A stretch of 64,000 bases of DNA, taken from the NCBI GenBank assembly GCA_951406725.2, contig OX597824.1:20088001-20152000 (forward strand), read 5' to 3'. Of this stretch, positions 14,559 to 59,492 are shown piece after piece. The stretch is from Octopus vulgaris. Lineage: Eukaryota. Positions within the stretch are counted from its first letter, which is position 1. Each line of letters opens with the position of its first letter. The position numbers and the translations under genes are program-made. The notes beneath the pieces were generated by a model. That model searched no databases, was not told where the DNA came from, and saw only the letters and a program-made list of their open reading frames with translations.

Positions 14559-16246
<1,688 letters not shown>

Positions 16247-16264
16247 ATAGATAGATAGATAGAT

Positions 16265-16470
<206 letters not shown>

Positions 16471-40260: not shown

Positions 40261-41399
40261 ATACCCATCGCACCAGGTATGTATCTAAATTATGTACGAC
40301 TCTTACTCTGTCTTTTATTGTCCCCTCTCATTTTTCTTCCTTTTTCTCGTTCTCCCTCCCTAACATTTCTTGGCCCTCTCTTTCTTTAACTCCCACTATT
40401 TCCCACTCGTTTATCTCCCCTTTACCTTTCTCTTTGTCTCTGATTTTTTCTAATCTTCCAATCCCGCTGCTCCTCCTTCCACGTGACCGGTGTCCGGCCA
40501 GCCATGATCTTCATTTCTTGGCCTGACTGCCGACCGCCAACACCTCTTGTGTCCATCTCCTATGTTCCTGCCTTTAGGCTTTCACTTCATACACGCCAGC
40601 TCAATTTGATTCGTTCTCAGTCGAAAGACACCTGTTGTTTGTATTCGTAATAGTGTACCATCTTCTCCGTTTATTTGGTTGTTTCTTTTTGTGCGTCTTT
40701 GTTGCCGTACACATTCGCTAGCTTTCTTACAAAGGGGTCTAATGCTCTTAGCTTAGATTTGGGGTGGGGAACCAGATCAAACCATCTCAAGTGTACCTGC
40801 CCGAAATGGTCGTGACTTCTGGAAGTTGACTGAGGAAAGAAAGCCACGAATGACCCGTATTTTTTGCCTGTCCTTCTAATTGTTGTTTCTCTTGTCCGCC
40901 TTTGTATCGTCTATCTGTCCGAATGATCTAATGTCCTCTATTGCGTTTTTGTTCCATATATTTTTCTTCTTCTTCTTCTTCTTCTTCTTCTTCTTCTTCT
41001 TCTTCTTCTTCTTCTTCTTCTTCTTCTTCTTCTTCTTCTTCTTCTTCTTCTTCCTCCTCCTCTTCTTCTTCTTCTTCTTCTTCTTCTTTCTTCTTCTTCT
41101 TCTTCTTCTTCTTCTTCTTCTTCTTCTTCTTCTTCTTCCCTACCAAGAATTCACAACGACCTCGAACCCACAAGAGTAAACAAGAGAGACAGAGACAGGC
41201 AGAAACAAGGAAAACGCCACTTGTATTTGAATACTATGCAAATATTCTTTTAAAAAACTTTTTCTTTTAATTTTTCCAAAATTTAATTATTTAATTGTTA
41301 CAATTGAAAAAGTCTCAATGACTGAAACCGGTACTGAAATGTTTTTTGTAAAATTATTTCAGCATTTTCTATCTTGACTATTTTTTTACACACACACAC

Positions 41400-41436
<37 letters not shown>

Positions 41437-41543
41437 AGTAGAGGCATTTGAAAGATACATCCGAACTTAATAGGTTGTACTTTTTGCATACGGGACTCCG
41501 GTATCGTTTTTCATCTAGTACAGCATATTATGCTCATAACAAA

Positions 41544-41605
41544 CTGCGCTGACGAAGCTACAGATATCCTTGTGATATTAATAGCTGAAACCGTTCGGTA
41601 CGCAG
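41544..41605 (+). ncRNA. Complete type I hammerhead ribozyme
   Basis: ctgcg CUGACGA agcta..gatatc-cttgt-gatatt..tagct GAA acc-gttc-ggU A cgcag: all core bases, three stems, GUA triplet. Confidence 0.82.
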
Positions 41606-41765
41606 GTGATTATTCCATTTCGTATATTTCTTTTGTCTTATCTATTGCTTTAGGTCGTGCTGAATTTTATTTTATTTGAGAACAAAATATTTGTGGAGAA
41701 TGGCGATTTGACGTCTATATCTAGCATGTTGACTGTTCACTTTTTCGTGTTCAGTCCTTAATTGG

Positions 41766-41947
<182 letters not shown>

Positions 41948-42415
41948 CATGTATGTGCACATATGTACTTACAGAGAAATGAATGTATACTCGTACATCA
42001 TTACTAAACTTTCTACACCGTCATATTCCTTCTTCTGTAATCAATAAGATTTTCACCGTTTCTTTATATTGTAATATCCTTGACGTGGAAATTGAGACTC
42101 TCTACGTAACACTAATTATATTGTTTATCGACCAAGCTTGTCACTTGCCAATAAAACTAATTTATGGCCAAGTAAAGAATATGTTTTCTCCTTCTGTGAT
42201 TATAAGAGAATAAAACCAACATATCAGTTCTTCTTTTGTTCGAATTTATATTTTCTCCGTGATATTAAATATGAGGAGGACGTGTTTTATTATAGAGTTC
42301 TTGATATATACTGTACGAATAAAAGACAAGATAATTACAACTAGTGTATCTTTGATCATAAGCTCGTTGGATCAGGTATAATCTGGGGTTAAATAGTACA
42401 ATAGAACTGTTTGAT

Positions 42416-57394: not shown

Positions 57395-58828
57395 TTAGCA
57401 TCTTTCAATTCTGTTTCTATTTCTTGCCGAGTGTCTTCCTAACACCTAGGGCAGAGAAACATACCGTATACATCGGTAGGCTATTAAAATAAACACGCCA
57501 CATTGTTCATTTACAAAGTCATGTGATCGAGAAAAAGAGGAAGACAGAGAGAAAAAGGAAAAAAATGAAAAAATAAACAAAGAAAATAAAGGGGGAGAAA
57601 AGGAAAGAAAATTAACAGCGACAATGCTCTTCTTAATACGCGTGAGATACCAGTTAAGACAATCTTTTGCACTCCCTGCATGGATGGTAAGCCAGGAATC
57701 ATACTTAGATAATTTTCAGTTCCTTTTTTGATCACTCCAAGCGCTCCTACAATCACTGGTATTGCAAACGTCTTGAGATGCCACACCTTTTCGATTTCGA
57801 TTAGCAGATCTTTATATTTTCTGAGCTTATCAAATTCTTTTGCCGAGATATTATGATCACAGGGTATGCTCATGTCAGTCAATAAGAAGACTTTATAGTT
57901 TTGGTCTTTCATAACAATATCTGGTTTATTTGCCTTGATGATCCAGTCTGTACATACTGGGAAGTCCCAAAGAATCGTTACATTTTCTCCCTCAGTTACA
58001 GCCTCAGGGTGGTGCTTGTACCATTTGTCAGCAGTTTTGATTTTATAATGCTGACACATTATCCAATGTAGATATTGGCCAACTCTGTCATGTCTTGATT
58101 TGTACTCTACAGGTGCCAAAACTTTACATTCAGAGATTAGGTGGTCCACTGTTTCTATCCTATCGTTGGAGTATCGGCACTTTGAGTCTATACCATTTTT
58201 CATCTCATTGGCTTGATAGTTCCGGGTCAATAAGCTCTGATCTTGGGCAGCCAAGATAAAGCCTTCACTCTCTGCCTTTAGCCCTGAGCTCCGTAGCCAC
58301 TGATGGGTGTGCTTCTGGTCTACATCAGCTTGTTTGCTACGGGCCACATATTTGCCATGCAGAGGTTTTTGTTCCCACCTATCAGCCAATTGTTCAAACG
58401 CATTTTGCTTTGCTATTGATTTCACCTTCTTTGCAACTACAGTTGCTGCACTTCCATCATGCTGTTCAACCTGGGTATTATGCATAAACTCACTTGAAAA
58501 TATTTTGCTCTCCTTCATAACAGAATGAAGCTTCTTACGTCTTTCATGGTTTTCAACGAGCTTTAGCATCCATGTCATTAGATGCTTCAAGATATTTTGC
58601 CAGCTCAATTGTGGTGGTTTTTGTAGGAGATTCCAAATAGGATCAAGCCTCGACCTCCTTGAGCTCTGGGTAGATAAAGACGATCTGCATTTCTCTTTGA
58701 GGGGGTGCATCTTATTGCAAGTCAGCAGCTTACGGATTTTCCTGTCAACCTTATTTATTTCGCTCATATTCCAGTTCAACACATTCAAACTGTAAATAAC
58801 AACCGGAACTGCTAAGGAATTTATAGTT
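57395..58828 (-). mobile_element. 5'-truncated R4/Dong-like RLE non-LTR retrotransposon
   Basis: INSLAVPVVIYS, AAQDQSLLTRNY, degenerate CCHC knuckle (CRYS..ETVDHLISEC), RHD, WDFP, KPDIV, K..KY.DL; DRLYLPRAQGGRGLI lies in another frame (compensated frameshift); abuts an (ATT)n array. Confidence 0.88.
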
Positions 58829-58925
58829 ATTATTACTATTATCATCATCACCACCATCATCATTATCATCATCATCATCATCATCATTATTAATATCATT
58901 ACTACTATTACTATTATTATTGTTA

Positions 58926-58987
<62 letters not shown>

Positions 58988-59107
58988 ATTATTATTATTG
59001 TTGTTATTATTATTATTATTGTTGTTGTTGTTGTTGTTGTTGTTATTATTATTATTATTATATTGTTATTATTATTATTATATATAATATTATTATTATT
59101 ATATATA

Positions 59108-59174
<67 letters not shown>

Positions 59175-59492
59175 CATTATTATTATTCTGCATGTTTGTT
59201 ACAATCACTCGCCGAGACACACCCAGCGTCCTAGGGCGAGTGAAGGATGAAAGATGTTCCAGTATGACTGAAAGCTTGGGGAAGGGAAGTGGCAGAGGCA
59301 GTAGTGAAATATCTTCATGTAATACAACGCAGACATTTAAATGGATAAGGTTTTTCTAAGGATGTGGGCAGTACTTATCAGCACAATCTTTTAGGATTCT
59401 CTGAGACATGGGTCTCCTGGGATATTATCATTATCATTATTATCATCATCATCATCATCATCATCATCATTATCATTATTATTATTATTATA

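Follow-up and report, generated by a model that had tools for sequence, protein, structure and literature searches.

Retrozymes are known from animals, and knowledge of the route by which they are copied into DNA, as of whether those of invertebrates cut as monomers or as dimers, rests on few cases. A palindromic helix III is described as the signature of a double hammerhead (PMC4209133, PMC3088659). Hammerheads whose helix III consists of two pairs and a tetraloop are reported in PMC7229834 to cleave as single copies, at about 0.8/min in coral and about 0.1/min in mussel; an axolotl two-pair variant reaches 22% per hour alone and does far better as a dimer (PMC7229834), and of nine retrozyme dimers predicted in Xenopus a single one cleaved in vitro (10.64898/2026.07.22.740005). 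Penelope-like elements leave partial tandems and inverted 5' copies, with a tail at one end and microsatellites as targets (10.1101/2021.04.23.441226). In a literature represented mainly by open-access main texts, PMC7229834 among them, we found no description of a cephalopod retrozyme.

Here we analyse a hammerhead located in a 64,000-nucleotide stretch of Octopus vulgaris DNA, hereafter the window, whose numbering is used throughout. With a probability of roughly 85%, we read it from its sequence as an intact type I hammerhead in a solo, 5'-truncated copy of a young, non-coding 508-bp repeat of the retrozyme kind. Very probably the ribozyme has been selected and belongs to a retrozyme family; the family is a new one of an already known kind. 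The single locus in the window is most likely an inert passenger, and we consider it unlikely that this locus is transcribed and cut in vivo. The elements of the ribozyme are the following:

41544-41605 (+): type I hammerhead as bounded by proximal helix I (read from the sequence and descriptor scan)
41536-41613 (+): full hammerhead with distal helix I (covariation)
41544-48 with 41601-05 (+): proximal helix I, CTGCG/CGCAG, enclosing the ribozyme (sequence and descriptor scan)
41536-39 with 41610-13 (+): distal helix I, past a 4x4 internal loop CAAA/GTGA
41549-41555 (+): catalytic core CUGACGA, C3 to A9 (sequence)
41556-41586 (+): helix II overall, with a 5-nt loop at its tip (descriptor scan and covariation)
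41556-60 with 41582-86 (+): inner 5 bp of helix II, AGCTA/TAGCT, beginning with A10.1-U11.1
41563-68 with 41574-79 (+): outer 6 bp of helix II, GATATC/GATATT, past a 2x2 internal loop CA/AA
41587-41590 (+): GAAA (sequence)
41587-41599 (+): GAAA and helix III, the latter ACC/GGT around GTTC
41590-41599 (+): near-palindrome of helix III, for a monomer hairpin or an 8-of-10 duplex between ribozymes
41598-41601 (+): predicted cleavage after GUA, between 41600 and 41601 (hammerhead consensus)

A sequence-only reading of the window had described stem I, the CUGACGA core, the extended stem II, GAAA, stem III closed by GUUC and the GUA ending at 41600, and each of these is returned as stated by the sequence and by a descriptor scan (helix I of 5 bp, helix II of 5 bp, helix III of 2 bp plus A15.1-U16.1). 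The type I hammerhead of that reading is complete and, in a type I scan, the sole full-size hammerhead of the window; its distal helix I had been overlooked. All core bases listed for hammerheads in PMC3088659 are present (C3 U4 G5 A6 N7 G8 A9 / G12 A13 A14 A15 / U16 H17), and the three helices are paired beside the core with helix I open, as in type I topology; in its predicted fold the motif is an intact type I hammerhead, a class of self-cutting RNA already known. With a strict type I descriptor there is one match in the real window, against none in 200 local doublet shuffles. Two features are less than optimal: the 10.1-11.1 pair is A-U rather than the usual G-C, and the triplet GUA, although found in natural hammerheads, is slower than GUC (PMC1636495). 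It is likely that the sequence cleaves in vitro in some arrangement, an expectation tempered by the single active dimer among nine predicted in frog.

The Infernal check proposed with the sequence-only reading was negative: Rfam hammerhead models find no match at gathering score in the whole window and none at E<=10 over 41000-42000, and the other Rfam matches are microsatellite-driven miRNA and chance matches. The long helix II may exceed the range of the models. Five more hammerhead motifs, of the minimal Penelope type, lie in other repeat families of the window (18456, 20738 (-), 29474, 30277 and 63541), with a helix III insert of 2 nt. The window's full-size ribozyme has neither the 2-nt palindromic helix III nor the extra base after A9 of that minimal type.

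Homologous ribozymes come from the 508-bp family and from a sister family of about 533 bp (examples are L071:1097-1691 and L112:1302-1834), about 70% alike to the first and with the same layout and end points. Copies of the sister family are mostly 82-92% alike, and it is the older of the two; its helix III variants are perfectly palindromic, and its helix II has a U.U at the base. A relaxed ribozyme pattern gives 134 matches for both families together. In an alignment of 13 variants the core is invariant in all 13 apart from N7, 93.6% of cells are paired, against 22-45% in slid-alignment controls, and 9 of 23 pairs show changes on both sides; because these variants are hand-picked and related, counts from shuffles are not probabilities. 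Distal helix I has 94% of its cells paired and both-side changes in two of four pairs (U-A/C-G, A-U/G-C), helix II has them in three of ten pairs with the CA/AA internal loop conserved, and proximal helix I occurs in compensatory subfamily variants (CTGCG/CGCAG, CTACG/CGTAG, CTGTG/CACAG) with a predicted pairing probability of 0.63-1.0. The 10.1-11.1 pair is non-standard in 5 of 13 variants, U.U being the form of the sister family. Covariation thus supports the predicted hammerhead as a selected structure. In both helix I and helix II a conserved internal loop lies 5 bp from the core, and the two loops are putative partners in a tertiary contact. ViennaRNA places the active fold 2.4 kcal/mol above the minimum free energy structure, which mispairs the core, and pairs helix III of the monomer at only 1-3%, a result of little weight since Mg2+ and tertiary contacts are outside its model.

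These data bear on the possibility that the motif resembles a hammerhead by chance or is catalytically dead, in an ordinary satellite amplified as DNA, which we regard as very improbable. The missing Rfam match, the weak helix III and the failure of most predicted frog elements to cleave (10.64898/2026.07.22.740005) would suit such an origin; it is opposed by an invariant core and helices that covary across families only 70% alike, and by copies with fixed 3' ends and variable 5' ends, a pattern that points to reverse transcription.

The sequence-only reading had also placed the hammerhead in an insert of ~330 bp between TA tracts. The insert is real and is a 5'-truncated copy of the 508-bp unit; that the hammerhead belongs to a dispersed tandem family had been missed. 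Its surroundings are:

41388-41433 (no strand): (CA)n(TA)n tract, 5' flank (sequence)
41436-41769 (+): solo 5'-truncated copy of the 508-bp unit, unit positions 165 to about 499, its 3' limit being approximate
41766-41914 (no strand): (TA)n tract, 3' flank and insertion target (sequence and end mapping)

At its 3' end the copy merges into the TA tract. Other full-query matches, at dispersed places, are 94-99% identical to it, and the nearest copy, L002, differs at four positions, none of them in the ribozyme. Scoring of 40 of 1145 candidates in the 2.8-Gb genome gives at least 45 matches to the insert. A 20-mer from the ribozyme has 46 exact occurrences, and the cut-site motif of the family is found in 73 genome copies and 0 times in reversed controls, with a pattern blind to truncated copies with a C twelve bases upstream. 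What had been called the best candidate for activity remains so within the window, but is not special in the family: 10 of the 73 copies have the same helix III and cut site. The full unit has a GC content of 35% and no LTR layout (PBS and PPT being outside this check), and six frames of the doubled unit contain no long ORF. Circular folds predicted for three units are highly self-paired (z of -4.3, -3.9 and -5.0 with 25 shuffles each; 62-63% paired). The sequence features of non-LTR retrozymes are found here: each short unit of the tandem arrays has a single type I hammerhead, is non-coding and of low GC, and has a highly self-paired predicted circle. Part of the unit is present in sequencing runs with six organism labels (20 of 24 rows), no RNA run being listed among those that contain it. 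In four runs available as contigs, which are blind to ends, strand, level and circles, the ribozyme is uncut in two; the contigs show a variant of the ribozyme under a second organism label and, under a third, a head-to-tail joint.

The ends of the copies are informative about their template. Among 51 arms mapped in 32 loci, 48 stop at either of two fixed positions of the unit, about 91 nt apart, nearly always followed by (TA)n: 31 at unit position ~500, 17 at ~83 of the next unit, and 3 elsewhere. The 5' ends are scattered over the unit. Two or three ribozymes stand head to tail in one arm at 7 of the 32 loci, arrays of three complete units start in TA tracts, and an inverted 5' arm is present at 16 loci, 13 of them with one arm per end point. 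The insertions sit in (TA)n, which would mask a target-site duplication. Arms cross the cut site in 37 of 51 cases, a count favoured by finding loci with ribozyme-containing queries, and none of the 73 copies starts at it, which leaves no fossil trace of cleavage among the 5' ends; the template would for these reasons be circular or uncut, so cut linear monomers are not the usual template. Units differ by a median of 0.5% within a locus vs 2.0% between loci (46 non-independent pairs), with exceptions within L004 (6/315), L006 (8/262), L023 (6/320) and L021 (41/401); units that diverge within one locus are as compatible with a multimeric template, or with subsequent mutation, as with a circle. 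On C1, two ribozymes of the same strand separated by 5.6 kb were set aside as a duplicate across an N gap, and so was a pair on C11 lying within a 6-kb duplication. At L012 and L018 (G000 C11, about 60.396-60.398 Mb) two arms end at the identical unit point with an identical flank after it, an inverted duplication that includes flanking DNA.

A cycle consistent with these ends would begin with transcription of a tandem array. Neighbouring hammerheads would pair via helix III, or the window's two-pair variant would fold alone more slowly, and cleavage after GUA, once per unit, would release 508-nt monomers that are likely closed into circles. A Penelope-type reverse transcriptase would then, likely, prime at the TA-like end points and copy the circle into (TA)n, reading through the ligated cut site and often making more than one round; an uncut multimer could serve as an alternative template. 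The window's copy would be one short cDNA of this cycle. Being solo and missing its first 164 nt, it is without a cis partner or known promoter, and as a passenger it would be cut only if an outside transcript ran through it.

The unit might instead be the pLTR of an autonomous Penelope-like element, the copies being 5'-truncated ends and the hammerhead trimming a full-length RNA without any free circle. Insertions into microsatellites that are tandem, inverted and tailed characterise Penelope elements (10.1101/2021.04.23.441226), retrozymes are reported to be related to pLTRs (10.64898/2026.07.22.740005), and each DNA search scored 40 of 1145-2043 first-look candidates. GIY-YIG matches are indeed many in the genome, some within 781-aa open frames, and two fetched frames have RT-like sequence running into a GIY-YIG motif. 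Yet 60 GIY-YIG loci, made up of the best 30 of 150 matches and the best 30 of 148, contain no autonomous partner with unit sequence; unit homology there amounts to one neighbouring copy and one 48-nt edge match, and among the loci fetched no ORF with RT and GIY-YIG is attached to the unit. Upstream of the copies, no family-linked coding sequence appears in an ORF scan of 60 loci or in L061-L153; arrays with three complete units have their start in TA tracts, and the lone ribozyme pair 5.6 kb apart is the assembly-gap duplicate already mentioned. We thus hold a pLTR origin to be improbable, and retain the non-coding retrozyme family. Young GIY-YIG elements at L206, L211 (G000 C16), L173 and L192 have long frames, of 781 aa in many instances and of 839 and 1025 aa in others. 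Boxes of TGATTGG/TGATGACGTC recur in the 3' region of the 781-aa family, whose examined stretch contains no hammerhead.

Whether the ribozyme works singly or in pairs depends on helix III. As a monomer it would consist of A15.1-U16.1, two C-G pairs and a GUUC loop; as a near-palindrome it pairs 8 of 10 positions in a self-duplex, predicted at -11.2 kcal/mol vs -0.9 for the hairpin. A fourth helix III pair is kept in 13 of 13 variants (8 A-U, 5 G-C), and in the monomer this pair would close a loop of 0-2 nt. Among the 73 copies the helix III inserts are CTGTACGG (31), CCGTTCGG (20, of which 10 with the window's helix I), CTGCAG (10), CCGCTCGG (4), CTGTACAG (3) and singletons (5). In both families, all eight recurrent helix III variants (46 of 57 ribozyme strings) are self-complementary over at least four positions from the core; one of the 57, at L083, is a false-positive regex match and was kept out of the alignment.

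A self-sufficient monomeric ribozyme cutting the transcript of the window locus is what the sequence-only reading implied in stating that no dimer is needed, a statement that is interpretation rather than observation and has about even odds. Such activity is plausible since the coral and mussel forms with two pairs and a tetraloop cleave alone (PMC7229834), a hairpin is predicted for just three recurrent variants, the window's helix III among them, and the core bases are all intact. Against it, the palindrome extends into the loop in 8/8 recurrent variants, 10 of 73 copies have nothing but a 6-nt palindromic insert, CTGCAG, and the axolotl two-pair form is slow alone and much better as a dimer (PMC7229834). 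Unit positions 1-164 are moreover missing from the copy, for which neither a promoter nor a host gene was identified. Cutting of this locus by a lone monomer is on balance unlikely. The window's motif appears dimer-competent, and possibly monomer-competent; we see the chances that its sequence is efficient as a lone monomer as evenly divided.

The promoter search was based on snRNA genes. U1 and U2 genes (L230-L259) share two upstream elements, TCAGT at positions -56 to -60 and, about 35 nt before it, an AATTAA box, which together form a candidate bipartite snRNA promoter; L235 and L242 have a different upstream sequence from which TCAGT/AATTAA are absent. With a matrix built from 16 of 30 U1/U2 upstream regions, the 14 omitted being near-duplicates or without the motif, four units contain no significant snRNA-type site: 8-20 of 100 shuffles score as high for the core matrix and 20-92 for the full matrix.

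The sequence-only reading had further pointed to a degenerate motif at 41314-41336, upstream of the insert. This motif turns out to be part of a separate repeat:

41141-41385 (+): separate high-copy repeat enclosing 41314-41336 (genome search and copy comparison)

The repeat has 3493 first-look candidates, 40 of them scored, with copies 92-96% alike. Of 16 fetched copies, 12 carry the identical motif and all 16 lack the CUGANGA core and helix II, which argues that it is not a decayed hammerhead partner. The repeat ends in TA/CA tracts, often with TTC tracts before it, and has inverted 5' copies, that is, Penelope-like ends without a hammerhead core. A link between this repeat and the retrozyme was rejected: the two occur together at two other fetched places, in 77-83% copies and in an arrangement unlike that of the window. 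Open frames elsewhere in the window, at 15068-16408 (-) and 57511-59355 (-), resemble fragments of non-LTR retrotransposons.

As the 508-bp family is of low copy number, a near-complete listing of its members is feasible, with matched natural helix III variants, and both the copying and the monomer/dimer questions are therefore cheaply testable. We tentatively suggest, at somewhat less than even odds, that the family is both a natural series of ribozyme switches and a fossil record of rolling-circle copying. Helix III would have been rewritten at least eight times within one young lineage with self-complementarity retained, one extreme of the range being a form that is likely an obligate dimer and the other the mismatch-centred form of the window, which could also cut alone. 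If this is true, selection would act on a double hammerhead that cuts in multimers and stays quiet within the circle, and the Penelope enzyme would start each arm on the RNA circle at one of the two fixed priming points, 91 nt from each other.

Among described systems, the octopus family is closest to the non-LTR retrozymes of coral, mussel and axolotl (PMC7229834; 10.64898/2026.07.22.740005), with which it shares a non-coding tandem unit of low GC (35%) without LTR. As in these retrozymes, each unit has one type I hammerhead, copies are solo, dimer or trimer, the predicted circle is strongly self-paired and Penelope elements are present in the genome; the U.U at the helix II base of the sister family recalls axolotl HHR_Amex2 (PMC7229834). 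This likeness is known from sequence, cleavage and circles being predicted. The units of 508-533 bp exceed the 150-450 bp of PMC7229834 but fall within the 51-972 bp of 10.64898/2026.07.22.740005. Unlike these retrozymes, the octopus ribozyme has a long helix II with an internal loop in place of a terminal loop 2, and its family is present in few copies with short arrays. The octopus copies also target (TA)n strictly, stop at two fixed 3' ends and carry inverted arms, features not described in the available parts of these two sources. With the Penelope pLTR hammerheads of PMC4209133 it has in common a type I topology, a palindromic helix III and tandem and inverted copies, but the window's ribozyme has a full helix III insert and a longer helix I, A9 is followed directly by helix II, and an attached ORF is absent. 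The tail of Penelope-like elements measures 30-40 bp (10.1101/2021.04.23.441226) vs about 91 in the 508-bp family. Finally, helix III and its loop are palindromic as in the double hammerheads of ASBVd and newt (PMC3088659 Fig. S8, PMC4209133), and a 10-bp duplex between ribozymes is possible; unlike these (PMC3088659, PMC4209133), the window's variant combines a central U.U/U.U mismatch with two C-G pairs and may therefore also work alone.
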